Numbered from the stretch's first letter, positions 16,280 through 40,349 are shown. The stretch is 64,000 nt of DNA from Vicinamibacteria bacterium (GCA_963837165.1 CAWIMD010000002.1:184143-248142), one strand, 5' to 3'. Program-made: numbers and translations. Notes: generated from the sequence alone by a model not told the origin.

Positions 16280-16282
16280 GCC

Positions 16283-16845: not shown

Positions 16846-16946
16846 ATTCTCGAGCAGCGGTCTGACACGCCAAATCAGCCGCGCACCGTGGTGACATGAT
16901 GGCGCGAGACGATCGGCGCGTCGGCTCCAGTTGGAGGTTGGATTAG

Positions 16947-17471: not shown

Positions 17472-17605
17472 CGACGGTCCTTTTGGTTCCGGTATCAGAG
17501 TATGCCCAACGTCCGCGGCGCACCGCGGCGCGTCACCGGTCTCGATGCCGCGCCGTCGGCTGCAGCCGCTTGTTAGCGGCCCACGCGGTATAGGCCGGGG
17601 ACATA

Positions 17606-18836
17606 GTTAACACAAGTCCGGGCACATCGTTTACACCAGGAGGATGCCCTGGATGGAAACGCATGTGGTGAAGGAACGGCTCGCGTTCGTGCACGACCTG
17701 ACGAGTGGCCACTGGTCGATGACCGAGCTGTGCGAGCGGTACGGCGTGAGCCGTCCGACGGGGTACAAGTGGATCGCGCGCCATGCGGCCGAGGGCGGCG
17801 CGGGCCTGGACGACCGAAGTCGTGCGCCGCAACGGTGCCCGCATCGCACCAGCGAGGCGCTGGAGGCGCTGATCGTCGCGGCCCGACGCGAGTACGGCTG
17901 GGGGGCGAAGAAGCTGTTGCGCGTGCTGCGGACGCGGCACCCGCACCGCCTGTGGCCGGCGCGCAGTACCGTCAATGCGATCCTCGAGCGGCACGCGCTA
18001 CTGCACAAGAATCGGCGCCGGCAGAAGTGGGCCCATCCTGGAGCGGTCGGTCTCTCGACGCAGCGGCCGAATCAGATCTGGCCCGCGGACTTCAAGGGCC
18101 AGTTCCTCCTGGGCGACGGCCAGTACTGCTATCCGCTGACGGTGACCGATCACTTCAGCCGCCGCGTGCTGGCCTGCCACGGGCTACGCTCCGTGAAGAC
18201 CCGCGAGGCGAAGCCGGTCTTCCGCGCGCTCTTCCGCGAGGTGGGCTTGCCGGATGCCATCCGCACCGACAACGGTGTGCCGTTCGCCTCGACCGGCATT
18301 CACGGCCTCGCGGCACTGAATGTCTGGTGGATGCAACTCGGCATCGTGCACCAGCGCATCACGCCCGCGAGTCCACAAGAGAACGGCACCCATGAGCGGA
18401 TGCATCGCGAGCTCAAGCGAGAGACGGCCCGTCCGGCGGCCGGCAGTCTCCGCGCGCAGCAGCGTCGATTCGATGCCTTCTGCCAGCGCTACAACAACGA
18501 ACGGCCGCACGAGGGGATCGGCGACCGCACGCCCAGTGCCCTCTGGTCCCCCTCGCTCCGCGAGTATCCCGAGCGTCCGACGCCGCCCGACTACCCGCTG
18601 CACATGGAGGTCCGACGGGTCAGCACCGCGGGCACCTTCCGCCTCCACTCGCGTCAGCCGTTTCTCAGCCACGCGCTCGGGGGCCACGACATCGGCCTCG
18701 AAGAAGTCGGCGATGGCATTTGGAACATCGTTTATTACAGTACGTTGCTCGGCAAGATTGACGTGCGCACGGGGAGCATTACTGGGATCTAGCGCGACAT
18801 GAAAGGTGTAAAGGATGCTGCCGGACTTTCGTTAAC
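17606..18836 (+). mobile_element. IS481-family insertion sequence (about 1.23 kb)
   Basis: Imperfect 32-bp terminal inverted repeats: gttaacacaagtccgggcacatcgtttacacc (17606-17637) versus the reverse complement of ggtgtaaaggatgctgccggactttcgttaac (18805-18836). They enclose the transposase ORF. No target-site duplication found. Confidence 0.75.
17644..18792 (+). CDS. IS481-family DDE transposase (HTH + integrase core)
   Basis: 382 aa. N-terminal HTH (MTELCERYGVSRPTGYKWIARH), then WPADFKG...TVTDHFSR...IRTDNGVPF...PQENGTHERMHRELK (DDE/rve core). Confidence 0.9.
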   Translation: MPWMETHVVKERLAFVHDLTSGHWSMTELCERYGVSRPTGYKWIARHAAEGGAGLDDRSRAPQRCPHRTSEALEALIVAARREYGWGAKKLLRVLRTRHPHRLWPARSTVNAILERHALLHKNRRRQKWAHPGAVGLSTQRPNQIWPADFKGQFLLGDGQYCYPLTVTDHFSRRVLACHGLRSVKTREAKPVFRALFREVGLPDAIRTDNGVPFASTGIHGLAALNVWWMQLGIVHQRITPASPQENGTHERMHRELKRETARPAAGSLRAQQRRFDAFCQRYNNERPHEGIGDRTPSALWSPSLREYPERPTPPDYPLHMEVRRVSTAGTFRLHSRQPFLSHALGGHDIGLEEVGDGIWNIVYYSTLLGKIDVRTGSITGI

Positions 18837-18849
18837 GATCAACCCGTCC

Positions 18850-20165
18850 GTTCAGGGGCTGAGCTGAGCGAATTCGCTTGTACTCGCGTCGGGCGTTCGG
18901 TACGCTGCGGGGGTGACGACGGGGCCCGCGCGCGCGCTGCTGCGACGACTGGGCCAGTTCCTCGATCAGTTCAGTGCGTGTTTCAATCGGCAGCCGCAGC
19001 GGGACGCGGCCACCCAGTACATCGACGGGCTCTTCGGCGACAGCGAGCGGAAGTCGATGCAGGCCATGCACGGGCGCCTGGGCGACGCGCGCGACTATCA
19101 AGCCCTGCAGCACTTCATCACGCACTCGCCGTGGGACGCCGCGCGCGTCTGGGCGCAGCTGCGCGCGAGCGTGCCGATCCGGACCGGCATCCTGGCCCTC
19201 GACGACACCGGGTTCCCCAAGCAGGGCACGCAGTCGCCGGGCGTGCAGCGGCAATACTGCGGCGCGCTCGGTAAGATCGGCAACTGCCAGGTGGCGGTGA
19301 CGAGTGCGTTGATTGACCGACGGGCGCACGTGGCCGTTGGCCTTCGAGCTCTATCTCCCCACGTCGTGGACGGACGACCCGGCGCGATGCGCGGCCGCCG
19401 GCATCCCGCCGACCGTGCGGTTCCGCGAGAAATGGCGCATCGCCCTGGCGCAGATTCGGACCGTCCTGCAGGCCGGGTTCACGATCACCGGCGTCGTCGT
19501 CGATGCAGACTACGGCGCGAACGCGGCGTTCCGCGCGGGGGTGGAACGCCTCGGTCTCGCCTACGGCGTCGCGATTCGGGGCGAGGCGGTGTTCACCGTG
19601 CCGGGCGTGGCCGGGCCGCTCTCCGCGATCGCCCTCGCCGAGTCGGCCCCCGACGACGCCTGGGAGATCGTGACCTGGGGCACGGGCACCGCGGGTCCGC
19701 TTACCGCCCAGTTCTGTGCGCTGCGGGTGCGTCCCACGGAAGAACGGGGCGATCGCTGGCTGCTGTGCGAGCGCTCCGCGAGCGACGAGCGGAAGTACTA
19801 CCTCGTGCACCTCGCTGCGACGAGTCCGCTCGTCGATCTGGTCGCCCTCGCGCGCAGTCGCTGGCCGATCGAACAGCAGTATCGCGAGCTCAAGGACGAC
19901 CTCGGACTCGATCATTTCGAAGGGCGCACCTATCAGGGCTGGACGCATCACGTCGTGCTCACGGCCGTGGCGTTCGCCTTCCTGCAGATCGAACGAGCAC
20001 GCCCCGACGACGGCCCGCGACCCACGCTGCCGATCGTTCGCGGTTGGGTCCGCGAGATCATGGGCCTGCTCTACGTGCTGCACAATCGGCGACTGCTCGC
20101 CATGCTCGACAGCTTCCGCCGAAACGCACCGCTGCGAAGGTGACAATGTAGTGTTAGCCCGCCTC
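18850..20165 (+). mobile_element. IS701-like insertion sequence, ends not defined
   Basis: Contains the split transposase below. Begins within about 15-75 nt of the IS481 right end. I could not identify convincing terminal inverted repeats, so the coordinates are approximate. Confidence 0.45.
18913..20143 (+). pseudogene. IS701-family (DDE_5/IS4-like) transposase interrupted by a 1-nt frameshift near 19317
   Basis: Frame A (18913-) reads ...LDDTGFPKQGTQSPGVQRQYCGALGKIGNCQVAVTSALID. The homologous continuation (TDGRTWPLAFELYLPTSW...VVVDADYG...RWPIEQQYRELKDDLGLDHFEGR) is in track ORF 19313..20143. The junction is att gac C gac ggg. Confidence 0.7.
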
Positions 20166-20169
20166 TAGT

Positions 20170-20577
20170 CTAGTCGATGACCATGCCGTAGATGGTCGGC
20201 TTGGAGATGGTCTTGATGACGTCGCCAGGCAGGCCCTCAACTTGAACCCTCGTCTCAGTCATGCTCAGGTCACGCGCCATCGATTGCGGCGTTGGCTCGA
20301 ATTCGACGACGACGTGAAAGTAGAGACAATCCCGGTAGGCGAAGTTCCTTCCCGTCTGGAGCCCACCCTCCGGTGTGAATACCTTCAGCAGATCGGCACG
20401 CGTCATGCCGGGCTTGATGCCCTCCATCCGCTTCATGCTCTGGATCACCCAACTGACGTGGCCCCGCAACGCGGCGTCCGCAGATGGTTGCTGGCCGACC
20501 GGCACGGAGGACGACGTGGTTCCTGAGGCCATGACAGCTAATGCAGAAGCGAGCAGGAGTTGTCGCACCATCGACAC
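20170..20577 (-). CDS. Exported hypothetical protein (island edge)
   Basis: 135-aa ORF with the signal-like N-terminus MSMVRQLLLASALAVMASG. Lower GC. No family recognised. Confidence 0.45.
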   Translation of the reverse strand: MSMVRQLLLASALAVMASGTTSSSVPVGQQPSADAALRGHVSWVIQSMKRMEGIKPGMTRADLLKVFTPEGGLQTGRNFAYRDCLYFHVVVEFEPTPQSMARDLSMTETRVQVEGLPGDVIKTISKPTIYGMVID

Positions 20578-20909
20578 ACCTCTGATCTTGTCGGCCTAAC
20601 TACTGATTGGGCTGACCAGCTTTCTCCTTCGCCGCCTGCAAACTGGTCGGCATATTTCAGTCGCGGGCGGCGGGTCAGTCTGGCCATTCAGTGGGTGACC
20701 GGCTGCATCCTAGCACCCGTTGATACGCGCCACCACTGATCGGCTGCGTGCCGTGGTTACCTGACCAGGGTTCCACCGCACCGGCCAGTGCCCCCGAAGA
20801 CGCTCCCCGCCGGGGCTCGGGGCGTCCGGCGGGCGGGCGCTTCGACTCGCGCGCGTGCGGAACGTGAAGCAGGCCGTCGTCACTGCACGGCCCTCGCGGA
20901 CGCCACGCT

Positions 20910-23363
20910 TCAGCTGGTCCGAAGGGCGGTCAACGGCTCGACGGCAAGCGCACGCTGCACGGGCGCGATGCACGCGAGCACCGTGACCAGGAGCAGGGCG
21001 GCAGCCACGCCGAGGAAGGTGAGTGGGTCCATGGCTCCCACGCCGAACAGTTGGCTGGCGAGCCACCGCGTCGCCAGCAGGCTGCCGCCCCAGCCGAGAA
21101 GGATCCCGAGGGCAGCGCTGCGGGCGACCTTCCCGAGGACGAGCGCCCGGATCCTGTGTCGCGTCGCCCCGAGCGCCACCCGCAGCCCGATCTCGCGCGT
21201 GCTCTGGCTGACTGTATACGCCATCACGCCGTAGATGCCCACCGCGGCCAACAGGAGGGCCAGCAGGGCGAAGCCGCTCAGGAATCCGGTCGAGAACCTG
21301 CGGCGGGCGAGTGATTCGGACGCCCACGGCCCCAGTGCACGTGCAGCCGTGACAGGCAGGTCCTTGTCCAGGGCGAGCAGCGCTCGCCTGGCCCGATCGC
21401 CCACCGCCGCGGGGTCGCCGTCGGTTCGAACGACGAACGTCATGCCCGCCAGTTCCGTCCAGGGCGCAAACGGGAATTGCGTCACCGGGAGAAACACCTC
21501 CGGACGCGACTCGGCATCGACGCCGTTCTGTTTCATGTCGGCGACGACGCCCACGATCTCGCGGTATGGCTGCTGACCCTGCGGTCCGCCCTCTCGCACC
21601 TGTCTTCCAACGGCGCTTCCTCCCGGCCACTGCCGTGCCGCAAACGTCCGGTTGACAATGGCAACCGGCCGCGTGCGTCGAGTATCTGCGTCGGAAAAAT
21701 ACCGCCCCGCCAGCAGAGGCGTGCGCATCGCTTCCAGATACCCCGGGGCGACGATGTTGGAGGCCGCCGTCGGGATATCGACAACGGAACTGACCGCGTG
21801 ATCGGCCATGGTGAATGCCGTGTCCACGCACACGCCCGTGAGCGGGGGGCATTGCACAGCGCCGGCCGCCCCTACGCCTGGAATGGCCTTCAGGCGCTCG
21901 ACGGCCTGCGTCAGCAGCAGCACCCTGCGTTCGGGATCCACGTACTTCGTCGGCGGTATCGTCAGTTCCAGTGAGAGCAGGTTGGCGGTCTCGAATCCCG
22001 GGTTGACCTGCGTTGCGCGCGCCAGGCTTCGCACGAGCAGCCCGGCACTGGTCAACAGCACGAGCGCGATCGCGATCTCGCTCGTCAGCAATGCAGATCG
22101 CAGGGTCTGCCCGCCCCGGGTGATTCCACCGCTCCGGCCGCCCCGGTTGACCGAGGCGCTCAGATTCCCGCAGGCGAACTGGATCGCAGGAGCGCTGCCG
22201 AACAGCAGCCCGCTTGCCACCGACACTGCCAGCGCAAATCCGAGGACGGTCGCATCCACCGGGACCGCTGCGACCGGGATGAGCGGCGCAGGCGCCGCTC
22301 GCAGCAGCACGGGGAGCGCGGCCAGCGCCAGCGCCACGCCGATCGCGCCGCCCGTCACCGACAGCATCGCGCTCTCGATGATCAACTGCTGCGCCAGTCG
22401 ACGACGGCCGACGCCCAACGCGATCCGGACGGCCATTTCCTGCTCGCGCGAGACGGATCGCGACAGCAGCAGGTTGCCGACGTTCACGCAGGCGATCAGG
22501 AGCACGCACGCGACCGACGCGAGCAGGATGAGGAGCACGTCTCGCGTGCTCCCGAATTTGAATTGATAGAGCCCGGTGATCGTCGCCGTTAGCCCCGTGT
22601 TCGACTGAGGATACTCCCTCTCGAGACGCCGCATGATGACGTCCATTGCCGTGCGCGCGGCCTCGCGGGGAACACCGCGCCTCAGGCGGGCGATCACCAG
22701 CATGTCCGGATGATTGCCACGCCTCAGCCACTCCGGGTCCGCGCCGTGCAGGCCGATCGGCAGGTAGATGTCGATGCGCTTATCGAAGAAGCGGAACGTC
22801 GGTGGCAGCACCCCGACGACGGTGTAGGCAGTCCCGTTCAGGGCCAGGGATCGTCCGATCACCTCCGAGCGCCCGCCCAGTCGCGTCGTCCACAGATCGT
22901 GACTGACGACCACGGCCAGCGGACCGCCCGGACGGTCGTTCCATTCATCGAACGCACGACCGACCACCGGATCGGCGCCAAGCAGGGGGAAGAACGCCGA
23001 GGAGACCTCCGCGGCCCTGACGACGGACGCCTCGTCGTCACCGCGGAACGTGACGTCGGCCACCCGGTAGGCAGCCATCTGCTCGAACACACGATTCTGC
23101 TCGCGCCAGTCTCGATAGTCCATCCAGGACACCGTCCGGCTGCCGTGTTCGCGCCTGGACTCGTCGAGCACCACGAGCCGGTCCGGATCCGGGAAGGGGA
23201 GTGGTTTCAGGAGGACGGCATTGACGAGACTGAACGTCGCGGTGTTCGCGCCGATGCCGAGTGCCAGCGTCAGGAGCGCGACCGCCGAGAATCCAGGATC
23301 CCGGAGGAACAGCCGCACACCGTATCGCATGTCCTGACACAGCGTCTCGAGCAGGCGTGCCAT
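20910..23363 (-). CDS. ADOP-family duplicated FtsX/MacB-type ABC permease
   Basis: Track ORF 20910..23393, start ATG 23363 (MARLLETLCQDMRYGVRLFLRDPGFSAVALLTLALGIGANTATFS). Two MacB-periplasmic + FtsX modules. C-terminus ...PVQRALAVEPLTALRTS. Confidence 0.85.
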   Translation of the reverse strand: MARLLETLCQDMRYGVRLFLRDPGFSAVALLTLALGIGANTATFSLVNAVLLKPLPFPDPDRLVVLDESRREHGSRTVSWMDYRDWREQNRVFEQMAAYRVADVTFRGDDEASVVRAAEVSSAFFPLLGADPVVGRAFDEWNDRPGGPLAVVVSHDLWTTRLGGRSEVIGRSLALNGTAYTVVGVLPPTFRFFDKRIDIYLPIGLHGADPEWLRRGNHPDMLVIARLRRGVPREAARTAMDVIMRRLEREYPQSNTGLTATITGLYQFKFGSTRDVLLILLASVACVLLIACVNVGNLLLSRSVSREQEMAVRIALGVGRRRLAQQLIIESAMLSVTGGAIGVALALAALPVLLRAAPAPLIPVAAVPVDATVLGFALAVSVASGLLFGSAPAIQFACGNLSASVNRGGRSGGITRGGQTLRSALLTSEIAIALVLLTSAGLLVRSLARATQVNPGFETANLLSLELTIPPTKYVDPERRVLLLTQAVERLKAIPGVGAAGAVQCPPLTGVCVDTAFTMADHAVSSVVDIPTAASNIVAPGYLEAMRTPLLAGRYFSDADTRRTRPVAIVNRTFAARQWPGGSAVGRQVREGGPQGQQPYREIVGVVADMKQNGVDAESRPEVFLPVTQFPFAPWTELAGMTFVVRTDGDPAAVGDRARRALLALDKDLPVTAARALGPWASESLARRRFSTGFLSGFALLALLLAAVGIYGVMAYTVSQSTREIGLRVALGATRHRIRALVLGKVARSAALGILLGWGGSLLATRWLASQLFGVGAMDPLTFLGVAAALLLVTVLACIAPVQRALAVEPLTALRTS

Positions 23364-23459
23364 CGTGACGCGATCATCGCGCGGACCCGCCATTGTCGCA
23401 AGGCATCCAGTGCGTCATAATATGGCTCTTTCGCGACACGCTCGAGCCGGGACCAGAGG

Positions 23460-26508: not shown

Positions 26509-27882
<1,374 letters not shown>

Positions 27883-27887
27883 GAATA

Positions 27888-27943
27888 GACGATTGACGAT
27901 TGACGATTGACGATTGACGATTGACGATTGACGATTGACGATT
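27888..27943. repeat. Tandem heptamer array (GACGATT) x8
   Basis: Eight perfect units. Starts 6 nt after the rho stop. The last unit overlaps the TAA (27942-27944, minus strand) of the permease remnant. Confidence 0.95.
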
Positions 27944-28836
27944 ACTCGGTTCTGAGCGCCTCGGTCGGCTCGATCGCGGCGGCTCGCCGTGACCACTCCG
28001 AACAGCGCCTGCTCGAGCGCGCGCCCGGCCAGATAGGTGAGCACCAGGCCCAGGACGATCCCTGCCATCGTCAAGCGTGCCGCGGTCGAGCCCGTCAGCC
28101 TGAACACGTCCCACGTCGTCGCGCCGAGCGCGACGCGCACCCCGATCTCCCGCGTCCGCCGCGACGTCAGGAACGACATCAGGCTGTACAGGCCGACCGA
28201 CGAGAGCAGGCACGACACGATCGCGATGACGGCAAGCGTCCTGGCCGCGAAGCGCAGCCCCGCCGTCTTGTCCTCCACCACCATCCGCAGCGTCTTCACC
28301 TGGACCACCGGCTGATCGGGATCGAGCGCCTGCACGGCCGCGCGCAGGTTCGCCGTGAGCTGGGACGGATCCGCAATCGTGCGGACGAGGAACGCGACCC
28401 CAGTCTCCGATCCAGTCCTGCTTCACGTCTCCGACCACGCCGACCACGCTGAGCAGGGATCCGTCGGGCGCCAGGCGGAAGCGCTGGCCCAGCGGCGACC
28501 GGTCCGCCCAGACCTTCCGCGCCAGCGACTGGCTGATCACGGCGACCGGCGTTGTACCGGACCGATCGGACGCGGCGAGCATCCGGCCGGCGACGAGCGG
28601 AACCCTGATGAGGGTCAGCGCCGTGGGCGCGACGCGGCGATCCACCACGTCGATCGCGTTCGACTCGAGCGGCTGCAGGTGCTCGGGCCAGAAGTGCGAG
28701 TACGAGTAGTTCCCGCTGTCGGGCACGGCGGTCGTCGCCGCCACGTCGGCCACCGAGGGCAGTGCCTGCAGCCGCGTGAGGACCGACTCGAACTGGAGCC
28801 GCCGGGTGGCGTCGCCATACTTCGCCTCGGGCAGCA
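27942..28836 (-). pseudogene. Remnant of an ADOP/FtsX permease (C-terminal half only, at least 2 frame breaks)
   Basis: Homology is spread over three minus frames. MacB-periplasmic part: KYGDATRRLQFESVLTRLQALP...VVGVVGDVKQD (track ORF 27749..29020). FtsX part: VAFLVRTIADPSQL...SRRTREIGVRVALGAT...LFGV (track ORF 26002..28335). Canonical tail: RRAAAIEPTEALRTE-stop in the third frame. The last TM helix and the whole N-terminal half are missing. Confidence 0.6.
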
Positions 28837-28837
28837 A

Positions 28838-28972
28838 GGGATCTGGGGGATCTGGGGGATCTGGGGATCTGGGGATCTGGGGATCTGGGGATCTGGGGAT
28901 CTGGGGATCTGGGGATCTGGGGATCTGGGGATCTGGGGATCTGGGGATCCGGGGGATCTGGGGATCCGGGGG
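28838..28972. repeat. Tandem octamer array (GGGGATCT), about 16 units, with a few 9-nt variants
   Basis: gggatctgggggatctgggggatctggggatctggggatct... Directly abuts the 5' truncation point of the permease remnant. Confidence 0.95.
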
Positions 28973-29027
28973 TAATTGCCCAGCAAGTCGCCAATTTTGT
29001 GCAGGGTAAAAATTTAGCATTTTATGC

Positions 29028-29063
29028 TGGACACGGTGAATTGGTGCTGCTATGTTTTTAGCA
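29028..29063 (+). promoter_or_regulatory. Promoter/operator of HEAT gene 1: TGGACA-17-TATGTT with the palindrome TGCTAtgttttTAGCA
   Basis: tggaca at 29028-33, tatgtt at 29051-56, palindrome at 29048-29063. There is also a perfect AGCAT-TTT-ATGCT palindrome at 29016-29028. The architecture is the same as at 31290-31325. Confidence 0.5.
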
Positions 29064-29123
29064 CTGTGGCGGCAAGGCTCCCACTTCGAGGGCCGGGACG
29101 CGCTTCAGTCCAGGAGGAATGCC

Positions 29124-30491
29124 GTGGTGCGACAAGCCGGTGCGTGGGCGCTGACCTTGAGCCTCGTGGCGGTCCTGCCCCTCCTGATCGAACGGCCGCC
29201 GCATGAGGCCGCGGTGGCAGCGGCTGCAGCCGTCGTCCCGGAGCAGTCGCCGGCCGCCAGCACGCCGAGCCGCCCGGTGCAGTCGCTGACCGCAGGGCTG
29301 TCCGCGACCGACGCGGCCGCCCGCGCGACCGCCGCCTGCGAGCTCGGTGAGCGCGGCGCCGATGCCATCAGCGCGGTGCCGTCGCTCGTGGCGCTGCTCG
29401 CCGACGACGCACGGGTGGACGATATCGAATGCGGCGACACCGAGGGCGGCGGAGCCCGGTGGCTCGCCGGCGGCGACCTGCGCCAGTGCGCCACGTCTCC
29501 GGCGCGTGAATCGGCTCGCGCGCTCGCGCGGATTGGCGCCGACGCCGTGAGGCCGCTCATCGCGGCGCTCTCGGACGTGCGGGCGACGATGCGCCGGTAC
29601 GCGGCGGTGGCACTGGGACTGATGCGCGATCACGCGGCCGCGCGGCCCGCCCTCGCCCGGCTCGAGTCCACGCTCGGAGACGACGACTGGCAGGTGCGGC
29701 GCAGCGTCGTGTGGGCGCTGGCCGAGGTGGGCGATCGAGGTGTCGCCTCACCGATCACCGCGCGGCTGAGGGAAGACGCGCACCCGCGCGTCCGCGAGAT
29801 GGCCGCCCACGGGCTCGCCAGCCTCGAGGACCCGCACGTGGCGCCCGCCCTCGTTGCGGCGCTGACCGACGAGGACTGGGGCGTTCGCCGCGAAGCCGTG
29901 CACGGTCTGGGCGACCTCCATGCGGCTGCCGATCTGGACGCCATCCTCGGCCGCCTGGACGACGAGCATCCCCGTGTCCGCGAGATGTCGGCGTGGGCCC
30001 TCGGCGAGATTGGCGACCACCGCGCCGCGCCCGGCCTTCGCCGCGCGCTGCGGGACCGCGAGCCCGACGTGCGCCACCAGACGGCGTGGGCGCTTGGCGA
30101 GCTGAAGGACGAAGGCAGCGCCGCCGCGCTGGCCGACACGCTCCGTCACGATGCCAGCGCGGAGGTGCGCCACATGGCCGCCTGGGCGCTGGGCGAGATC
30201 CACGCGACGGCGGCGGTCTCGGCGCTCGTGGCGGCGCTTCGAGACGACGACGGCCGCGTGCGCGACATGTCGGCCTGGGCGCTCGGCGAGATCGGCAGCA
30301 GCGACGCCATCGACGGTCTCATCGCGGCCTTGAAGGACAGCGATTGGAAAGTGCGCGCCAAGGCGGCCTGGGCCATCGGCGAGATTGCCGACCGCCGGGC
30401 CACCGAGGCGTTGACGGCCAGCCTGAAGGACGAGCACCCCGAGGTTCGCAAGATGGCCGCCTGGGCGCTTGCCGAGGTCAGCGGGCGCTGA
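29124..30491 (+). CDS. HEAT (PBS-lyase-type) repeat protein with an N-terminal signal anchor
   Basis: Track ORF 29052..30491. Start moved to GTG 29124, 6 nt after AGGAGG (29112-17), because ATG 29052 lies inside the predicted -10/operator. At least 10 repeats of the type D.D..VR..AAWALGEIGD..A...L. Confidence 0.78.
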   Translation: MVRQAGAWALTLSLVAVLPLLIERPPHEAAVAAAAAVVPEQSPAASTPSRPVQSLTAGLSATDAAARATAACELGERGADAISAVPSLVALLADDARVDDIECGDTEGGGARWLAGGDLRQCATSPARESARALARIGADAVRPLIAALSDVRATMRRYAAVALGLMRDHAAARPALARLESTLGDDDWQVRRSVVWALAEVGDRGVASPITARLREDAHPRVREMAAHGLASLEDPHVAPALVAALTDEDWGVRREAVHGLGDLHAAADLDAILGRLDDEHPRVREMSAWALGEIGDHRAAPGLRRALRDREPDVRHQTAWALGELKDEGSAAALADTLRHDASAEVRHMAAWALGEIHATAAVSALVAALRDDDGRVRDMSAWALGEIGSSDAIDGLIAALKDSDWKVRAKAAWAIGEIADRRATEALTASLKDEHPEVRKMAAWALAEVSGR

Positions 30492-30512
30492 CGCCCGCCC
30501 ATTGGAGGATTC

Positions 30513-31274
30513 GTGACCATGTCTCTGCGCTCCGCCGTGATCGTCTTCCTGACCGCTCCCCTCGTGGCTGGCGCGGCGCTCGCCGCCGGCGGCCAGAGCC
30601 CGGCACCCGCGCCGGCTCCGGCCCCCACGCCCACGCCGACCCCGGCCGTGGCGCCGCGTGCGATGTCGATGCCGATGCATCTGGCGATGCCGATGCCGAT
30701 GCCGATGCCCATGCCGACACCGACACCGACGCCGATGGTCTACGCCTTCGCGCATGGCCGCCACGAGCGCGGCTCGCTCACGCTGCCGCCCGCCACCGTC
30801 ACGGCGCTCCAGGAGGCGGTGCACGACGAGGACGCCGACGTCCGCCAGCAGGCGCTCGCGCTGCTGAGCCGTCTGCAGGCGGGCGTTCCGATCGACACGC
30901 TGCTCGGCGCCGCCAGGGATTCCGACGCCGACGTCAGGCAGATGGCACTGGGCCTGCTCGGCGAGTCCGATGACCCCCGCGCGACGCCCGCGATTCTCGC
31001 CGCCGTCGGCGACAAGGACACCGATGTCCGGCAGCAGGCGCTTGCCGCGCTCGGCGAGCGCCAGGATCCGGCGGCAGTCGACGCGCTGCGGAAGGCGCTG
31101 CACGACCAGTCCGCCGACGTCCGCGAACAGGCGGCCTATGCGCTCGGCTCGACCGGCGACCCGGCCGTCGCCGACGCTCTCACCGCCGCGCTGAAGGATC
31201 CGGTGCCCGATGTCCGCCGGGCGGCGGCCATGGGGCTGGCCGCACTGGCCGAGGGCGGGCGCCATCGGCACTGA
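30513..31274 (+). CDS. Exported HEAT-repeat protein with PAPAP/TPTP and Met-Pro low-complexity linkers
   Basis: Signal peptide MSLRSAVIVFLTAPLVAGAALAAG, then PAPAPAPAPTPTPTP, AMSMPMHLAMPMPMPMPMPTPTPTP, then about 5 HEAT repeats (DADVRQQALALL, DADVRQMALGLLG, DTDVRQQALAALG...). Confidence 0.8.
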   Translation: MTMSLRSAVIVFLTAPLVAGAALAAGGQSPAPAPAPAPTPTPTPAVAPRAMSMPMHLAMPMPMPMPMPTPTPTPMVYAFAHGRHERGSLTLPPATVTALQEAVHDEDADVRQQALALLSRLQAGVPIDTLLGAARDSDADVRQMALGLLGESDDPRATPAILAAVGDKDTDVRQQALAALGERQDPAAVDALRKALHDQSADVREQAAYALGSTGDPAVADALTAALKDPVPDVRRAAAMGLAALAEGGRHRH

Positions 31275-31289
31275 GCATGCCGTGACGCG

Positions 31290-31325
31290 TGGACAGGAAC
31301 GATCCAATCTGCTAATTTGTTAGCA
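31290..31325 (+). promoter_or_regulatory. blaI promoter/operator: TGGACA-17-TAATTT with the palindrome TGCTAatttgtTAGCA
   Basis: tggaca at 31290-95, taattt at 31313-18, palindrome at 31310-31325. The flank TAGCACTG is identical to that at site 29059-29066. Confidence 0.5.
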
Positions 31326-31366
31326 CTGGCTGCCGCCCGCGGGGGCCGGCAGGGAGCATCGCCACC

Positions 31367-31753
31367 GTGCCCAAGAGCCTTGGAAACCTGAGCCGCCGCG
31401 AGCGGCAGATCATGGACGTCCTCTTCCAGAGGAGCCGCGCCACCGCCGCCGAGGTGCAGGAGGCGCTGCCCGAGCCGCCCAGCTACTCGGCGGTCCGCGC
31501 GCTGCTGCGGATCCTGGAAGAGAAGGGACATATCCGCCACGAGGCCGACGGACCGCGCTACGTCTACCTGCCGCGACACGACCGCGACAAGGCACGCCAG
31601 TCGGCCATGCGTCACGTGGTCCAGACGTTCTTCAACGGCTCGACCGGCGACGCGATCGCGGCGCTGCTGGGGTCGGACGGTGGACGCTTGTCGGCGGAGG
31701 AGATCGACCGGCTGGCCATCATGATGGATCAGGCCCGCAAGGAGGACGCATGA
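31367..31753 (+). CDS. blaI: BlaI/MecI/CopY-family transcriptional repressor
   Basis: LSRRERQIMDVLFQRSRATAAEVQEALPEPPSYSAVRALLRILEEKGHIRHEADGPRYVYLP (winged helix of the Penicillinase_R type). GTG start. The stop overlaps the blaR1-like ATG (ATGA). Confidence 0.9.
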   Translation: MPKSLGNLSRRERQIMDVLFQRSRATAAEVQEALPEPPSYSAVRALLRILEEKGHIRHEADGPRYVYLPRHDRDKARQSAMRHVVQTFFNGSTGDAIAALLGSDGGRLSAEEIDRLAIMMDQARKEDA

Positions 31754-33936
31754 TCACCCACGATGCCGGGGCGCTCGCGGCCCTGGGCACGCTCGCCCTG
31801 CGCGCGACCGTCGTGCTGACCGCGGCCTGGCTGGCCGCGAGGCTGGCGTCCGGCCGCTCGGCCGCCGTCCGACATGCCGTCTGGGCCGCGGGCCTGGCGT
31901 CGATCCTCGCGCTGCCGGTTCTGACGGGCGCGTTGCCCACGTGGGAGCTTCGCGTGCTGCCGGCGGATTCCTCGGGCAGCCCGAGCACCGGCGTCGAGCC
32001 GGAGCGGACGATGGCGGCCGCGCCGGCCGCGCCGCGCGTGCACCACTCCGCCACGACCGCTACGCCGACGGCGGCACTGGCCGCGCCCACGCCCGTCGTG
32101 GCCGGGCCGTCCACGCCGGCGCCAAGCGCGTGGACGCCTGCCACGCTCCTGCCGTGGGCCTGGGTGGCATGGGCTGTCGTGGCCGCGGCTCTGATGCTGC
32201 GCTATCTGGCCGGCATCGCGATGGTGGCGCGGATGACGCGGCGCGGCGCGCCGGCCGCCGGGGTGCGCTGGCGCGACGAGATCGAGGTGGCCGCCGCGGC
32301 CGTGGGCCTCGCGCGCGAGCCGCGCGTCGTGCTCTCCTCCGAGGTTTCGGTACCCTTCACCTGCGGGTTCCTTCGCCCGGCGCTGGTCCTGCCGCACTCG
32401 GCGGACACCTGGACCGACGAGCGCCTCCGCATCGTCCTGCTGCACGAGCTCGCGCACGTGGCCCGGCGCGATTGCCTGGTGCAGGCGGTCTCACATGCCG
32501 CCTGCGCTCTCTACTGGTTCCACCCGCTGGCCTGGCTTGCCGCGCGGCGGCTGCGCGCGGAGCGGGAACGCGCCTGCGACGACCTGGTGCTGCAGGCAGG
32601 CACTCGCGGCGCCACCTACGCCGAGCATCTGCTGGAGATCGCCCGCGCCGCCGTCCGGCGCTCGCCGCGGCTCGCGGGTGCCGCGCTGGCGATGGCGCGG
32701 CCGTCCGAGCTCGAGGGACGCCTGCTGGCCATCCTGGACGGCCGCCGCGATCGCGGCCGGTCGCGCCGCACCGTGTCCTGGCAGCTGCTGATCCTTGGCG
32801 CAGTGGTGCTCCTGCCGAGCGCAACGGTGCGCCTCGTGGCGCGTGACGCCGCCGCGGCGGTCATGCCGGCTCCCGAGGCGGCTCCTCAATCCGCGTCCGA
32901 CGCCGCAGCTCAGGGCGCGACGGCGACCACGACGCAGACCGTGGCCGTGACGCACGAGTCACCCCACGGTCGAGGCGCCGGTGTGGGACACGGCATTGGC
33001 GACGGGGTCGCGGAGGGCGTCGCCGGCGGCGTGACCCGCGGCGTCGTCGCAGGCGTCGCCTCGGGCGTCGCCGAGGGCATCGCTGGCGGCGTGGCGGGCG
33101 GGGTTGGCCAGACGGTCGTCGCGGCGCTTGCCGGATCGGACGACGACGAGCAGAAGACACTGCCGCCGGCGGTACTGCAGGGACTGACCGAGGCGCTGAA
33201 GGACAGCGATGCCGAGGTGCGCAAGCAGGCGCTGCGCGCGCTCGCGCGCTTCCACTCGCCCGAGGCCTACGAGGCGTTCTCCACGGCGCTGAAGGACAGC
33301 GACCCGGAGATTCGGCAGCAGGCGGTCTTCGCGCTCGCCCACCTGCACGACGCGCGTGCCGTCCAGCCGCTCACCGGCATGCTTCGGGACGGCGACGCCG
33401 ACGTGCGGCAGCAGGCCGCGTTCGGGCTCGGGCAGCTTCGCGCGAAAGAGGCCGTCCAGCCGCTGATCGGGCTGCTGCACGATCCGAACGACGACGTGCG
33501 CGAGCAGACGATCTTCGCGCTGGGTCAGATTGGCGACTCGTCGGCCGCGTCCGCCATTGCCGGCGCGCTGACCGACAAGGCCGACGACGTGCGCCAGCAG
33601 GCGGCGTTTGCGCTGGGGCAGTTCGGCGATCCGGGCGGGGTGCCAGGGCTGGTGGTGGCGCTCGCGGACAAGGCGCCCGAGGTGCGGCAGCAGGCGGCGT
33701 TCGCGCTGGGACAGATTGGCGACGACCGCGCGCTCGACGCGCTGACCGCCGCGCTGAAGGATCCGAACGCCGAGGTGCGTGAGCAGGCGATCTTCGCGAT
33801 CTCGCAGATTGCCGGGGGTGGCAGACACCACCCCCGGGCCATCCAGCCGCCACCGCCTGCGGCGGCCGCGCCGGCGGTGGCACCCACTCCGAGGCCGGCC
33901 GGAACGCCGGTACCGCCGCCTCCGCAGCCGCGCTGA
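31750..33936 (+). CDS. M56-family (BlaR1-like) membrane metallopeptidase fused to a C-terminal HEAT-repeat domain
   Basis: N-terminal TM region, FLRPALVLP and LLHELAHVARRD (HExxH). A further TM helix, a G-V-x-x low-complexity linker (GVGHGIGDGVAEGVAGGVTRGVVAGVASGVAEGIAGGVAGGVGQ), about 8 HEAT repeats (DADVRQQAAFGLGQL...), and a Pro-rich tail. No penicillin-binding domain. Confidence 0.85.
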   Translation: MITHDAGALAALGTLALRATVVLTAAWLAARLASGRSAAVRHAVWAAGLASILALPVLTGALPTWELRVLPADSSGSPSTGVEPERTMAAAPAAPRVHHSATTATPTAALAAPTPVVAGPSTPAPSAWTPATLLPWAWVAWAVVAAALMLRYLAGIAMVARMTRRGAPAAGVRWRDEIEVAAAAVGLAREPRVVLSSEVSVPFTCGFLRPALVLPHSADTWTDERLRIVLLHELAHVARRDCLVQAVSHAACALYWFHPLAWLAARRLRAERERACDDLVLQAGTRGATYAEHLLEIARAAVRRSPRLAGAALAMARPSELEGRLLAILDGRRDRGRSRRTVSWQLLILGAVVLLPSATVRLVARDAAAAVMPAPEAAPQSASDAAAQGATATTTQTVAVTHESPHGRGAGVGHGIGDGVAEGVAGGVTRGVVAGVASGVAEGIAGGVAGGVGQTVVAALAGSDDDEQKTLPPAVLQGLTEALKDSDAEVRKQALRALARFHSPEAYEAFSTALKDSDPEIRQQAVFALAHLHDARAVQPLTGMLRDGDADVRQQAAFGLGQLRAKEAVQPLIGLLHDPNDDVREQTIFALGQIGDSSAASAIAGALTDKADDVRQQAAFALGQFGDPGGVPGLVVALADKAPEVRQQAAFALGQIGDDRALDALTAALKDPNAEVREQAIFAISQIAGGGRHHPRAIQPPPPAAAAPAVAPTPRPAGTPVPPPPQPR

Positions 33937-33941
33937 GAGCC

Positions 33942-35300
33942 CTACTTCGCGCTCTTCGGAACCCGCACCTCCGTGGAGGACGTCGCCACGTTGCCGGCGG
34001 CGTCCGTGCACTGGACCGTCAGCGTGTAGACGCACTCGCGGCCGCTCTTGGACTTCGACGCGCGCAGGCTGGCCGTCATCGGGCCGGTGACCAGCATGTC
34101 GGCCTGCGGAGCGTCGCCGCCCGAGATGCCCACCAGCTGGCAGGTGGGTGACTCGCCCGAGTCGTCGCTGGCGCTGACCGAGAGAGTGACCGGCACCATC
34201 TGGTTGTTCGGCGGCCAGAGCGTGTCGGGCGATGCATGCACCGATTCGATGACTGGCGCGGTCACATCCGCGTCCTCCTCGGACGTGATCGTCAGCCGGA
34301 ACGCGCGCAGGGCGCCCTCCAGGCGGCCGTCGCCGACGACCACGCCATGGTCGTTCACGGCATACGCCGTCTCCAGCACCCACCCGGATGCCGGATCGAT
34401 CAGGTCGTTGAGGTCGGTGAGCGTGCCGCCCTGCCACATGCAGGCGTGGGTCGCGCCGGCCGCCGTCCTCGACATTCCGACGATCGTCCCATTGTTGCTC
34501 ACGGCCAGCGCCTGGCTCAGCGTGCCGCCCAGCGTGCCGAGGTCCACGGCCGTCGCGTCGCTGGTCCACGCCGTCGCGTGCGCCTGGTTGCTGACGTTCA
34601 TCGAGTAGCCGACGACGAGGCCGGCATCGTTGATGCCGAAGGCGCTGCCGAAGTTGGCGCCGAGCGTCGCGAGCTGGTGCAGGGTGCCGTCGTACCGCAC
34701 GGCGAAGGTGAGGTTCGAGGCGTCGCGCGAATTGCCGACGACCACGCCCGCCGCGTTGATCGCGTTCGCCGAGCTGAGCTTGCCGCCGCCGGCCAGATCC
34801 CCCATATCTTCGGCCGGCAATCCGGGCGTCTGGCGGAAACCGTGGGTCACGCCCGACGGGTTCTGGAAGCCCGCCACGACGCCGGAGGCGTTGATCGCCT
34901 GCGCGGTCGCCTGCGTGGCGCCCGCCAGATAGGGCACGTCGGTGAACGTGTTGCTCGCCGAGTCGTAGCGGAATGCGTGCGTGAGGCCGCCGGCGTCGTA
35001 GTACCGGCCGGTGACGACACCGCCGTCGTTGACCGCCAGCCCGTCGAGGCTGCTCGCGCCGAGCGGCAGGGGCACCATGGCGGGCGTGGCCATCTGACTG
35101 AAGCCGAAGTCCACCGCGCCGTCCACGCCGAAGCCCGCGGCCAGGCCGTTGCCGTTGAGGCCACGCGCGTGCGTGGCGAATCCCGCCGGCCCGATCTCCT
35201 CGATCGTGACGGTCGGTCCGGCGGCCCTGAGGACGGGCGACGGGCTGCCGGCCGCAATGCCCAGCGCCAGGATGCCGGTGAGGGTCCAACGTGATTGCAT
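33942..35300 (-). CDS. Exported HAF-family repeat protein with a C-terminal Ig-like domain
   Basis: Signal peptide MQSRWTLTGILALGIAAG. Repeated ...A.GIN..G.VVG...HAF... units (GLTHAFRY, GVTHGFRQ, AHATAW, ATHACMW, LRAFRL). The family name is from memory of TIGR-type 'HAF' extracellular repeats. Confidence 0.7.
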   Translation of the reverse strand: MQSRWTLTGILALGIAAGSPSPVLRAAGPTVTIEEIGPAGFATHARGLNGNGLAAGFGVDGAVDFGFSQMATPAMVPLPLGASSLDGLAVNDGGVVTGRYYDAGGLTHAFRYDSASNTFTDVPYLAGATQATAQAINASGVVAGFQNPSGVTHGFRQTPGLPAEDMGDLAGGGKLSSANAINAAGVVVGNSRDASNLTFAVRYDGTLHQLATLGANFGSAFGINDAGLVVGYSMNVSNQAHATAWTSDATAVDLGTLGGTLSQALAVSNNGTIVGMSRTAAGATHACMWQGGTLTDLNDLIDPASGWVLETAYAVNDHGVVVGDGRLEGALRAFRLTITSEEDADVTAPVIESVHASPDTLWPPNNQMVPVTLSVSASDDSGESPTCQLVGISGGDAPQADMLVTGPMTASLRASKSKSGRECVYTLTVQCTDAAGNVATSSTEVRVPKSAK

Positions 35301-35420
35301 GGCAGACTCTCCGCGGCTGGGGGCGCCAGCTCAAGGGGCAAGGCCCGTGCCCGGGGGCCTCGATCCGCCTAAATACTGCCCTCTGCGGGAGGTTGCGCCG
35401 ATCCTGGCCCATCGGCACGG

Positions 35421-35642
35421 GTGGCGGCGTGTGCCAGGACGGGACACACTGCTACCAGGATTGAGATCCGTCGCCTTGCCGGGCCCTGGAACATTCGGAA
35501 TCCCGAGACCGAGCGCCTGGCGACGGAGTTGGCCCGACAGACCGGCGAAACCGAGACGGCGGGAGTGACAAAGGCGCTGCGCGATCGGCTCGCCCGGGTC
35601 CGGCGCGAGCGATCCAGTCGCCGGCCCACCGGGCCGGCTTGA
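35421..35642 (+). pseudogene. VapB-type (Rv0623/PSK-like) antitoxin remnant
   Basis: NIRNPETERLATELARQTGETETAGVTKALRDRLARVRRE matches the family core. There is no proper start codon next to the conserved N-terminus, and the C-terminal half is replaced by unrelated residues. Confidence 0.45.
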
Positions 35643-35758
35643 ACTACGTCGATTGCTTCTCGTGCGCCCTCGCGATGGCGTCCGGCGAACCGCTCCTGTT
35701 CAAGGGAGACGACTTCGGGCACACGGACATCGCGATCGTCAGTCGGCCGCCCGGCTGA
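35639..35758 (+). pseudogene. PIN-domain VapC toxin remnant (last 39 or so codons only)
   Basis: My translation of frame 35639: LNYVDCFSCALAMASGEPLLFKGDDFGHTDIAIV-stop. This is the typical C-terminal end of VapC. The N-terminal 90 or so residues are absent. Confidence 0.5.
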
Positions 35759-35770
35759 CCGCTACGCCAT

Positions 35771-37693
35771 TCACGCGTTGGCAGCGGTCCGTGGCGTCTC
35801 CGGCGTGCCTTGGCCGCCGTGTTCCTCCGGCGGCTGCCCCAGGATCTGCCGCAGCTCCTCGCCTTCCATGACCTCGCGCTCGAGGAGCCGCCGGGTGACG
35901 GTCTCGAGATGGCCGCGCTGCCCGCTGATCACCCGGCGCGCCGTGTCGTGGGCGTCGGTCATGATCTGCTTCACCTCGGCGTCGATCAGCCGTGCCGTCT
36001 CTTCCGCGTACACGCCGCGCTCGCTCGGCAGGCCCAGCTCCAGGAAGCGGCTCCGCTTCTCGCCGGCGTAGTTCACGGCGCCGAGCTTGTCGCTCATGCC
36101 CCACTCGGTGACCATCGCGCGCGCGATGTCGGAGGCGCGCTGCAGGTCGTTCTGCGCGCCGGTCGAGATCTCGCCCAGCGCGATTTCTTCGGCCGTCCGC
36201 CCGCCCAGCAGCACGGCCAGCTGGTTCTTGAGGTCCGTGCGCGTCATCAGGTACTTGTCCTCGAGCGGCAGCTGCATCGTGTAGCCGAGCGCGCCGAAGC
36301 CGCGCTGGACGATCGAGATCTTGTGCACGCGATCCAGGCCGGGGAGGGCAGAGGCGACCAGCGCGTGCCCCGACTCGTGGTACGCCACGATCTCGCGCTC
36401 CTTCGGGTTCATCACGCGCTTCTTCTCGAGCCCCGCGATCAGCCGATCGATCGCCTCGTCGAAGTCGCGCATCTCGACGGCCTTCTTGTCCTTGCGCGCC
36501 GCGAGCAGCGCCGCTTCGTTCACGAGGTTGGCCAGATCCGCGCCGGCGAAGCCGACCGTGCGGCCGGCCACGACCTTCAGATCCACCTCAGGCGCGACCT
36601 TCACCTGCCGCGTGTGGATCCGCAGCACCTGCTCGCGGCCGTTGATGTCGGGCTTGTCCACGAGCACCTGCCGATCGAACCGGCCGGGGCGGAGCAGTGC
36701 CGGATCGAGCACCTCGGGACGGTTCGTCGCGCCCATGATGATGACGGCCTTGCGCGAGTCGAAGCCGTCCATCTCGGCGAGCAGCTGGTTCAGCGTCTGC
36801 TCCCGTTCCTCGTGGCTCCCCATCGGGCTCTGCACGCGCATCTTGCCCAGCGCGTCCAGCTCGTCGATGAAGACGATGCAGGGCGCCTTCTGCTCGGCCT
36901 GCGCGAACAGATCGCGCACGCGCGCGGCGCCGACGCCGACGAACATCTCCACGAACTCCGACCCGCTCAGCGAGAAGAATGGCACCTTGGCTTCGCCGGC
37001 CACGGCGCGCGCCAGCAGCGTCTTGCCGGTTCCGGGCGGGCCGACCAGCAGCACGCCCTTCGGAATACGCCCGCCGAGGATGGTGTACTTCTTGGGGGTC
37101 TTCAGGAACTCGACGATCTCCTTGAGCTCTTCCTCGGCCTCGTCCACGCCGGCCACGTCCGAGAAGCTCACTTTCACGTCGTCTTCGGCGTAGATCTTGG
37201 CGCGGCTGCGCGCGAACGACATGACGCCGCCCTCGGCGCCGCCAATCCGGCGGAAGAAGAAGCTCCAGACGGCGATGAGCAGCACGAGCGGGATCACCCA
37301 GCCGAGCACCTCGGGCAGCCAGCGGCTGACCGTCTCGCCGGTGAACTTCACCTTGTGGGCCTCGAGATCCTCGACGAGCTTCGGGTCCTCGATGCGGGTG
37401 GTCACGAACTGGTCGGTGCGCTGGCGGCCCTCGCCCTGCGCCTCGCGCAGCTTGCCGGTAATCGTTTCGTCGCCGACCTTCACCTCGATCACCTGGTCGC
37501 TGCGCACGAGCCCCTTGAAGTCGCTGTAGGCGATCGTGCGGCCGGACGGCGTGAGGAACCAGGCCTGGGCGACCGCAAGGAGGAAGAGAGCCCCCAACAC
37601 GTACCAGATGGAGAAGGCCGGCCGCTGGGGGCCGAGCGGCCGGCGTTCGCCGGGCTTCCTGTCGCGGGGAGAGGGAGGCGCCTTGATCGCCAC
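35771..37693 (-). CDS. ftsH: ATP-dependent zinc metalloprotease FtsH
   Basis: 640 aa. Two TM helices, [25 protein letters not shown], the SRH, and HESGHALV (HExxH). Confidence 0.95.
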
Positions 37694-40306: not shown

Positions 40307-40349
40307 GATGACCGCTCGTTTCCCCGCGACGTTCCGTGTTCCCCGCGTC

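Follow-up and report, generated by a model that had tools for sequence, protein, structure and literature searches.

Tandem arrays with G-quadruplex potential in a 64-kb Vicinamibacteria window: probable slippage-driven intergenic microsatellites

A 64,000-nt stretch of DNA from a Vicinamibacteria bacterium (GCA_963837165.1 CAWIMD010000002.1:184143-248142; "the window", that is, the whole stretch that was analysed) carries at positions 28838-28972 a tandem array of the octamer GGGGATCT, located between the remnant of a permease gene and the predicted promoter of an operon encoding HEAT-repeat proteins and a BlaI-type repressor, and carries three further arrays that, like the first, are G-rich on the plus strand and have the sequence pattern of a G-quadruplex (G4). 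The results presented below indicate that these arrays are probably slippage-driven, hypervariable intergenic microsatellites, with a G4 potential that is incidental to the sequence of the repeat unit. Gene placement combined Pfam annotation with codon-bias gene calls on the 64-kb window, and places every tandem array of the window in an intergenic spacer. The GC content of the window is ~70%; the closest matches to its rho are metagenome-assembled genomes labelled Vicinamibacterales or Acidobacteriota (83-91% amino-acid identity), and the host, judged from sequence, appears to be a Vicinamibacterales-like soil acidobacterium. Exact-match protein look-ups with rho, with a 597-amino-acid protein (61790-63583), and with a 579-amino-acid protein (1866-3605) returned no match. 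Arrays were called with Tandem Repeats Finder (TRF), G4 motifs with the regular expression G3+N1-7 x4, and G4 propensity with G4Hunter. The 28838 locus, the other G-rich arrays and the remaining G4 motif are as follows:

27949-28837, minus strand: 5'-truncated, frameshifted ADOP/MacB-type permease remnant with MacB_PCD and FtsX domains (Pfam, tblastn)
28838-28972, plus strand: (GGGGATCT) array, ~16 units (TRF 28838-28971, period 8, 16.4 copies, 95% matches)
29028-29056, plus strand: promoter-like site TGGACA-17-TATGTT (sequence reading; conserved in the related locus L125)
29124-33936, plus strand: operon of two HEAT-repeat genes, a BlaI-type repressor gene (31367-31753) and a BlaR1-HEAT gene (31750-33936) (Pfam and gene calls on an ENA contig)
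6145-6191, plus strand: (GGGAGTT/GGGAATT) array, ~7 units (TRF period 7, 6.7 copies; regular-expression match 6149-6186, 6 G-tracts)
46027-46073, plus strand: (GGGTTGAT) array, ~4-5 units (TRF 46037-46073, period 8, degenerate flanks; regular-expression match 46027-46073, 7 G-tracts)
60543-60606, plus strand: (GGGAGGGATTTGAT) array, 4.4 perfect units (TRF 60543-60604, period 14; regular-expression match 60552-60600, 8 G-tracts)
44174-44195, plus strand: sole non-repeat G4 motif, four tracts, inside the uxaC gene (regular expression; consistent with chance)

An earlier note on this DNA had described the four arrays as canonical G4 motifs, all G-rich on the plus strand, the longest with about 16 units. 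TRF and the regular expression bear out this description: all four arrays contain at least four tracts of three or more Gs, separated by loops of 1-7 nt, on one strand, and the longest has 16.4 copies by TRF and, with its flanking GGGs included (regular-expression match 28829-28972), 18 G-tracts. The 28838 array contains 16 GATC sites and two variant units, GGGGGATCT (three times) and GGGGATCC (twice). The regular expression yields five plus-strand matches and no minus-strand match in the whole window, a number that is not above chance at 70% GC (dinucleotide shuffles give 3.1 +/- 1.8 plus-strand and 2.4 +/- 1.5 minus-strand motifs); the longest chain of G-tracts, by comparison, is 18 in the window vs. 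a maximum of 7 in 100 dinucleotide shuffles. G4Hunter, which the earlier note had proposed as a check, scores the 28838 array at 2.16, the 6145 and 60543 arrays at 1.52, and the 46031 array at 1.48, the last being borderline relative to the threshold of 1.5, and thus is strong only for the 28838 array. With the G4 option of ViennaRNA, the G strand of the 28838 array is predicted to form four stacked four-tetrad quadruplexes (-116 kcal/mol, vs. -70 kcal/mol without G4), and the GATC cores of the array permit slipped hairpins on both strands. Oligonucleotides (GGGGATT)3GGGG, (GGGGACT)3GGGG, and (GGGAATC)3GGG form K+-dependent G4s, as assessed by circular dichroism (Rehm et al., 2015; PMC4692102). 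By modelling and by analogy, the arrays of the window can form G4s on paper, and may actually do so in the cell.

The same-strand orientation of the four arrays stands as an observation, but it is not significant (4/4, two-sided p = 0.125) and is gone when all 11 tandem arrays of the window are counted (G>C on the plus strand in six, C>G in five). GC skew across the window is too flat for replichore assignment. The earlier note had also held that, at lexA and at the desaturase operon, the RNA carries the C-rich complement and the non-template strand carries the G-tracts. The first half of this statement is correct; the second half is not, because lexA (6202-6807) and the desaturase gene (46078-46950) both lie on the minus strand, and the G-tracts are therefore on the template strand. 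We conclude that a G4-centred, strand-oriented interpretation of the arrays is only partly supported.

A comparison with a second strain shows differences in unit number at some of the arrays. ENA ERZ25039539 contig_22010 (874 kb) is 99.8-99.9% identical to the window over ~41 kb, differing in 34.7 kb by ~35 substitutions (~0.1%) and by a few 1-nt insertions or deletions (indels) that resemble long-read errors, and all four multi-base indels between the two strains lie in tandem repeats. In contig_22010 the 28838 array is shorter by 42 + 9 nt (51 nt, ~6 units; ~10 vs. ~16 units) and has three substitutions near its 3' end, the array at 42878 has one unit fewer, and a 31-nt repeat at 40362 is longer by two copies (62 nt). 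The remaining arrays are identical in both strains, except for a 1-nt indel at 6089 in a (CCCAACT) array, and the longest array, at 28838, is thus the least stable. Could the arrays or their length differences be artefacts of assembly? Both the window and the ENA contig look like long-read assemblies, 1-nt indels split clpB in the ENA contig, and differences between G4 and G5 runs within the array could be homopolymer errors. Nevertheless, arrays occur at the same sites in two independent assemblies, GGGGATCT arrays occur in 40 contigs of other metagenome projects, and a 51-nt difference is far above typical consensus error. An artefact is, accordingly, extremely unlikely.

The 28838 array lies at a point where gene sequence has been lost. 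The permease remnant corresponds to residues 483-785 of an 828-amino-acid paralogue encoded at 20910-23393, contains one frameshift and one in-frame stop (tblastn), and has a cut end that directly touches the array. Synteny with four relatives (L001, L003, L004, and L005) shows that the interval 27.9-35.8 kb (27900-35800), comprising the permease remnant, the HEAT/BlaI/BlaR1 operon, and a gene for a 452-amino-acid protein without a Pfam family (33942-35300), is a variable segment between rho and an FtsH/ClpB block. A homologue search with the HEAT protein returned no close orthologue, the best match being 62% identical; a 56%-identity match, L125 (ENA ERZ25039487 contig_90458), was the sole one to give useful synteny, and is the only one of the relatives compared that shares the arrangement of the segment. 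In L125 the permease region is ~3 kb, vs. 0.9 kb in the window, is divided into three called open reading frames (ORFs) in that assembly, starts, as read by eye, with a PadR-like reading frame, and is divergent from the same HEAT operon. Because L125 keeps this fuller arrangement, we conclude that the lineage of the window has lost ~2 kb: the PadR-like gene, together with 60% of the permease gene from its 5' end. One end of the deletion falls exactly at the 28838 array, a position that is consistent with breakage promoted by the array. The proposal of the earlier note that such sites might be recombination-prone fits this array, in that it is ~6 units shorter in a 99.8-99.9% identical strain and coincides with a deletion breakpoint.

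An ORF on the minus strand (27749-29020), called as a gene on the ENA contig, runs through the 28838 array, which it would translate as (PDPQIPRS)n, and shares the frame of the permease remnant; this frame is kept despite the 51-nt length difference between strains. We judge this ORF to be a pseudogene artefact, because of the downstream frameshift and because the N-terminal membrane segment is missing.

The 3' end of the array is 56 nt upstream of the -35 hexamer of the promoter-like site, and two TAGCA/TGCTA palindromes, 29015-29029 (TAGCATTTTATGCTG) and 29048-29063 (TGCTATGTTTTTAGCA), overlap the predicted -35 and -10 elements and are conserved in L125; from their sequence, the palindromes could be operators for the BlaI-type repressor encoded at 31367-31753. 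The position of the array raises the alternative that it is a functional DNA G4 upstream of the HEAT/BlaI/BlaR1 promoter, the folding or unit number of which tunes transcription as a contingency switch. The conserved -35/-10 pair only 56 nt away, the strong G4 potential, and the difference in unit number between strains are as expected on this alternative, and G4s near promoters alter expression in Escherichia coli (summarised in Rehm et al., 2015; PMC4692102). However, the array lies upstream of the probable transcription start and not between the -35 and -10 elements, such that changes in unit number leave core promoter geometry unaffected; it is the only array of the window next to a promoter-only spacer, in an arrangement that arose through deletion; and at the same position in L125 there is a non-G4 array, of an unrelated 25-nt unit present five times, ending 62 nt from the -35 hexamer. 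Furthermore, the repeat class described by Rehm et al. is under-represented between divergent genes, with no regulatory role found (PMC4692102). We therefore consider a promoter G4 at this locus unlikely.

The phase-variation (contingency) repeats of host-adapted pathogens, Haemophilus and Neisseria among them, lie within reading frames or between -35 and -10 elements, and changes in their unit number switch a gene on or off. The window shares with these systems a slippage-type change in unit number between close strains, observed at 28838 and at 42878, but none of its arrays lies in a functional reading frame or between -35 and -10: the 28838 array is outside any such spacer, the sole ORF through it is the frameshifted pseudogene, and the other arrays follow stop codons. 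The window arrays also differ in being near housekeeping or metabolic genes, rather than genes for surface antigens. The G4 at Neisseria gonorrhoeae pilE, like other single regulatory G4s of bacteria, is a conserved, non-repetitive motif that requires a particular strand and is associated with a small RNA; the 28838 array resembles it in being G4-capable, upstream of a gene, and linked to recombination or instability, and differs from it in being a repeat of variable length that is not conserved in relatives.

The four G-rich arrays belong to a larger population. TRF finds 11 tandem arrays in the window, a local density of about one per 6 kb, vs. none in 30 dinucleotide shuffles with the same settings, and at least seven unrelated repeat units occur within the 64 kb. 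The other arrays are as follows, with the strand given where one was assigned (all TRF):

6070-6100, plus strand: (CCCAACT) array, ~4 units; reverse complement of the GGGAGTT array
7880-7956: C-rich array, period 9/23 nt; begins 1 nt past the PfkB stop codon
24267-24326: (ACTGCCT) array, 8.6 units, unit the same as CTACTGC; between convergent AraC-family and PMT genes
27888-27943: (GACGATT)8 perfect array without G4 potential; begins 5 nt past the rho stop codon
42545-42618: (GCAGTAG/GCAGCAG) array, ~11 units; overlaps the TerC stop codon
42878-42931: (CTACTGC) array, 7.7 units; inverted relative to the 42545 array
56749-56777: weak (CCGGTTC) array, ~4 units; begins 1 nt past a stop codon

Arrays are present in nine spacers, about one in five, and cover 31-85% of each, the highest value being that of (GACGATT)8, which takes up 85% of the spacer that separates the stop codons of rho and of the permease remnant. 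Most arrays start 0-11 nt from a stop codon. The 46027-46073 array is between the desaturase stop codon (46078) and a histidine kinase start codon (46007), both genes being on the minus strand, and the 60543 array is between a convergent MR_MLE gene (stop 60536, plus strand) and a hydrolase gene (stop 60618, minus strand). Four of the eight convergent spacers, four of the 31 co-directional spacers, and one of the nine divergent spacers carry arrays (Fisher p = 0.03, convergent vs. rest). The inverted heptamer arrays at 42545 and 42878 flank an 84-amino-acid ORF (42619-42873, minus strand) without a Pfam family.

This placement suggests, as an alternative, that the arrays serve at gene ends to terminate transcription, to pause it, or to direct processing of the RNA, a C-rich, G-poor, unstructured RNA resembling a Rho-loading site in one orientation, a G4 being formed in the other orientation, and inverted pairs giving long hairpins. 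The starts 0-11 nt past stop codons and the enrichment between convergent genes are in keeping with such a role; so is the composition of the RNA downstream of the lexA, desaturase, and hydrolase genes, which would be C-rich and almost G-free; and most repeats of this kind are transcribed in Xanthomonas (PMC4692102). A further point is the predicted structure of the spacer between lexA and the DUF3467 gene. There the GGGAGTT array starts 10 nt past the lexA stop codon (lexA being on the minus strand), and, together, the arrays at 6070-6100 and 6145-6191 occupy the 146-nt spacer (6056-6201) as an inverted pair, the C-rich partner having three C-tracts, just below the G4 threshold of the regular expression. 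The spacer as RNA is predicted to fold into a single long hairpin (-77.1 kcal/mol, z = -8), which, on the model, competes with any G4 there. But no U-tract follows the hairpin, which is thus no intrinsic terminator, and no intrinsic-terminator-like site (a GC-rich hairpin followed by a T/U-run) was found at the arrays around 28838. In addition, termination would be harmful at several arrays that probably lie within operons (lexA-DUF3467, desaturase-kinase); the arrays that follow TerC, UxaC, and rho have neither a C-rich composition nor G4 potential; arrays of the GGGGATCT unit are oriented 6:6 at gene 3' ends; and the arrays of the window are absent from relatives. A role at transcript ends is, on balance, improbable. 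That the arrays provide stop codons in all frames was also considered and rejected: some units contain TGA (GACGATT, GGGTTGAT), but GGGGATCT and GGGAGTT are stop-free on either strand.

The lexA inverted pair is a lineage-specific gain, because in the relative L003 the same two genes are only ~5 nt apart, and it bears on a further alternative: that the arrays are, or come with, small mobile elements of the miniature inverted-repeat transposable element (MITE) or repetitive extragenic palindrome (REP) type, the lexA pair being one insertion. Relative to L003 the 146-nt spacer is insertion-like, with 10-nt perfect inverted ends (GTCAACTCCC and GGGAGTTGAC), and a 7-nt direct repeat, CAGCAAG, is present on both sides of the 28838 array. 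Against this, the loop and flank sequences have no second copy in the window, there is no flank homology with 40 metagenome arrays, and the changes in unit number between strains are as expected from slippage. Neither the window nor the 40 contigs contain what defines such elements, namely many copies with a shared non-repeat core, terminal inverted repeats, and target-site duplications; CAGCAAG was ruled out as a target-site duplication, the DNA to the right of the repeat being promoter, not permease, sequence. Only the GGGAGTT array, among the four G-rich arrays of the window, has an inverted partner. A mobile-element origin is highly improbable.

An exact search for (GGGGATCT)3, requiring at least three units, in 241 million metagenome records returned 40 contigs, mostly of 60-70% GC. 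By codon-bias gene calls, the array is intergenic in all 23 contigs of >60% GC in which the array pattern was found. The arrays of the 40 contigs have between 3.5 and 24 copies (mode near 8), without a peak at 4. Where arrays abut gene 3' ends, the transcript would be G-rich in six cases and C-rich in six. Alignment of the window to the 40 contigs with blastn found no shared flanks, and the GGGGATCT arrays are therefore not copies of one locus or element; ADOP-type permeases adjoin the array in two of the contigs. Many other 7-8-nt arrays are present on the same contigs, including, on one, the post-rho unit of the window, GACGATT. Five contigs come from a single metagenome, Ga0268299 (among them L102, L120, L106, and L100), and are packed with other 7-8-nt arrays; L102 (Ga0268299_1000127; 2968-6916), for example, has six in 11.7 kb. 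The Ga0268299 contigs suggest another organism in which such repeats are very abundant.

The metagenome arrays provide no sign of purifying selection on the G-tracts. Three sister octamers, AGATCACC, AGATCCTC, and AGATCCCT, keep an AGATC core and have an altered G-run, and two of the three have no G3 tract. In GATC-chained arrays, substitutions fall in the G-tract in 13 arrays and in the loop T in three, and about a third of variant-carrying arrays have a broken tract. Conservation of the core raises the alternative that the arrays are platforms for a nucleoid or RNA-binding protein that recognises a periodic core (GATCT or ATTGA every 7-8 nt). The sister arrays, which vary at the other three positions, would fit this, as would the post-rho arrays of the window and of L003, which share an ATTGA core and vary at two positions. 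But at least seven unrelated units in 64 kb argue against one binder, conservation of a core can come from amplification of variant units, no candidate protein was identified, and GATC is not unusual in the window (582 observed vs. 566 expected). We regard a protein platform as very unlikely. The same GATC frequency led us to drop a Dam/GATC cluster as an explanation.

Taken together, the results point to slippage-driven microsatellites. The G4 does not look like a selected feature of the arrays, because arrays without G4 potential occupy the same kinds of sites, orientation is 6:6, sister arrays have a GATCT core with a broken G-run, and G-tract substitutions are as common as loop substitutions; we infer that the arrays have no G4-specific function. 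The arrays also turn over between species: no array was found at the rho or TerC spacers of L001, L004, L005, and L125, lexA and the DUF3467 gene of L003 have only ~5 nt between them, and L125 has an array of an unrelated unit in place of GGGGATCT. In the proposed mechanism, arrays would grow, shrink, and homogenise through replication slippage in DNA free of coding or promoter constraint. Because slippage would be confined to such unconstrained DNA, arrays would stop at gene and promoter boundaries and 7- or 8-nt units would be kept out of genes. The unit sequence would differ from site to site, with a G4 arising as a by-product where the unit has GGG or GGGG, and the longest array may owe part of its instability to G4s or to slipped hairpins formed by GATC.

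Several observations weigh against this interpretation. Arrays persist at two positions. Right after the rho stop codon, L003 has a degenerate NNATTGA array of ~9 units (11524-11595), which TRF missed, its copies being <70% alike, and which is 7-nt periodic (lag-7 identity 0.55 vs. 0.26 +/- 0.05), such that a 7-nt-periodic array with an ATTGA core follows rho in both the window and L003; and a tandem array, of unrelated units, is just upstream of the HEAT/BlaI promoter in both the window and L125. Having an array or a spacer at such positions could thus be selected. The enrichment between convergent genes could likewise mean a role at transcript 3' ends, rather than mere tolerance. Substitutions in the window's own G-rich arrays fall, as read by eye and in small counts, in loops and not in G-tracts, with the exception of one degenerate unit, GCAGTT, which borders the 6145 array on its 5' side. 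Finally, the genomic evidence base is 64 kb, and the difference in copy number comes from two long-read assemblies, for which repeat assembly error is not fully excludable.

The persistence of arrays and their enrichment between convergent genes keep alive spacer, insulator, or 3'-end roles, none of which is G4-specific. In its fullest form such a role would make the arrays selected, orientation-independent boundary modules between convergent or adjacent genes, giving C-rich, unstructured, Rho-loading RNA in one orientation and a G4 or hairpin roadblock in the other, insulating transcription units in a genome without classical terminators, having a length tunable by slippage, and serving as a variable insulator upstream of the HEAT/BlaI/BlaR1 promoter. 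If true, this would explain both the post-rho array in two species and the presence of a different array at the same promoter-upstream site in a relative; we consider it unlikely.

The microsatellite interpretation places the window among known repeat systems. Intergenic heptamers have been noted elsewhere: heterocystous cyanobacteria reportedly contain STRR heptamers (attributed to Mazel and colleagues, 1990), and heptamer repeats are said, by Mrazek and colleagues in 2007 (summarised in PMC4692102), to be over-represented in large, GC-rich genomes. Polymerase slippage favouring ~7-nt units is the proposed origin of such repeats. The window resembles the STRR systems in having several different tandem intergenic heptamer units per genome, and differs in unit sequences and in phylum. 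A literature search recovered no paper on tandem repeats of this kind in Vicinamibacterales.

The closest precedent is the GGGAATC repeats of Xanthomonas and the GGGGA(C/T)T repeats of Nostoc (Rehm et al., 2015, PLoS One; PMC4692102). These repeats have 2-26 units, are 68-93% intergenic, lie near gene ends, and occur at about equal frequency on the two strands; they frequently form convergent inverted pairs able to form stem-loops, vary in length between close relatives, and have no regulatory function found; and the corresponding oligonucleotides form G4s in K+, with T1/2 above 95 C for GGGG units (PMC4692102). The window arrays match this class in nearly every respect, and, by sequence, belong to the same G-rich hepta/octamer class: they consist of G3-4 tracts and short A/T-rich loops arranged head to tail, GGGGATCT containing GGGGATC and GGGAATT/GGGAGTT fitting GGGANTN; they are intergenic and near gene ends, with both orientations used (6:6 in the metagenome contigs); they include a convergent inverted pair (6070-6100/6145-6191); and they vary in length between relatives. 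They differ in that the known repeats are heptamers, whereas here there are octamers (28838, 46031), a 14-mer (60543), and a heptamer only at 6145; in that a four-unit preference seen there is absent among the 40 contigs with GGGGATCT; in host, here an acidobacterium of ~70% GC and of another phylum; and in that one dominant family there contrasts with G-rich arrays that here are a minority among many unrelated 7-8-nt units. A second precedent, the intergenic TAACTGA direct repeats of Beggiatoaceae, cyanobacteria, and Bacteroidetes (MacGregor, 2015; PMC4679880), shares with the window heptamer tandems that are abundant between genes and patchy in phylogenetic distribution, and differs in having one unit, mostly in 2-6 copies, just upstream of start codons, which suggests translational control, rather than diverse units mostly after stop codons.

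The results extend the G-rich hepta-/octamer repeat phenomenon from Xanthomonas and Nostoc to uncultured soil Acidobacteriota, and they provide a natural comparison between G4-capable and G4-incapable arrays in equivalent contexts, which so far argues that it is the repeat structure that matters and not the quadruplex. As hotspots of length variation between strains, with a link to at least one deletion, the arrays are relevant to the quality of metagenome-assembled genomes and to strain typing with variable-number tandem-repeat markers. When "regulatory G4s" are counted in bacterial genomes of high GC content, motifs that arise by chance are frequent, and motifs derived from repeats need separate treatment.

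Further repeats and segments were observed in the window and in its relatives. In-frame coding repeats at 30661-30737 and 33016-33101, with periods of 6 and 12 nt, are of another kind than the 7-8-nt arrays between genes; the second HEAT protein owes to the first of them a low-complexity linker of the type (PM)n/(PT)n, and a similar tract is present in L125. The 25-nt x5 array of L125 lies in the region 5681-5850, upstream of the HEAT operon promoter, where a 40-nt palindrome (ATGTCTGCAATGCAGGC...GCCTGCAATGCAGACAT) overlaps the start of the PadR-like gene and may be its operator. L002, labelled Acidimicrobiia and having an acidobacterial-type rho, has seven copies of ACCTCGGA at 9513-9587, past the 3' end of a permease gene and upstream of a CoA-binding gene and rho, and has, ~700 nt downstream of rho (12169-12229), a 12-nt repeat apparently within a lysine-rich reading frame. 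Rfam 15 (gathering score) and tRNA/tmRNA scans of the 64-kb window gave no matches. CTAG is strongly avoided across the window (9 observed vs. ~38 expected from trinucleotides). A palindromic element (GGCAGGCCTGAAAGCCTGCGCTACA ... TGTAGCGCAGGGCTTCAGCCCTGCC) is present between clpB and dnaJ (40340-40415); the two additional copies of the 31-nt unit in the ENA strain lie here, which makes it one more repeat of variable length. A lower-GC segment (64-68%) at 14500-20900, missing from the four syntenic relatives, contains a MazEF-like toxin-antitoxin pair (16283-16845), an IS481-family transposase gene (17644-18792), and a DDE transposase fragment (19313-20143), and is probably a mobile island.

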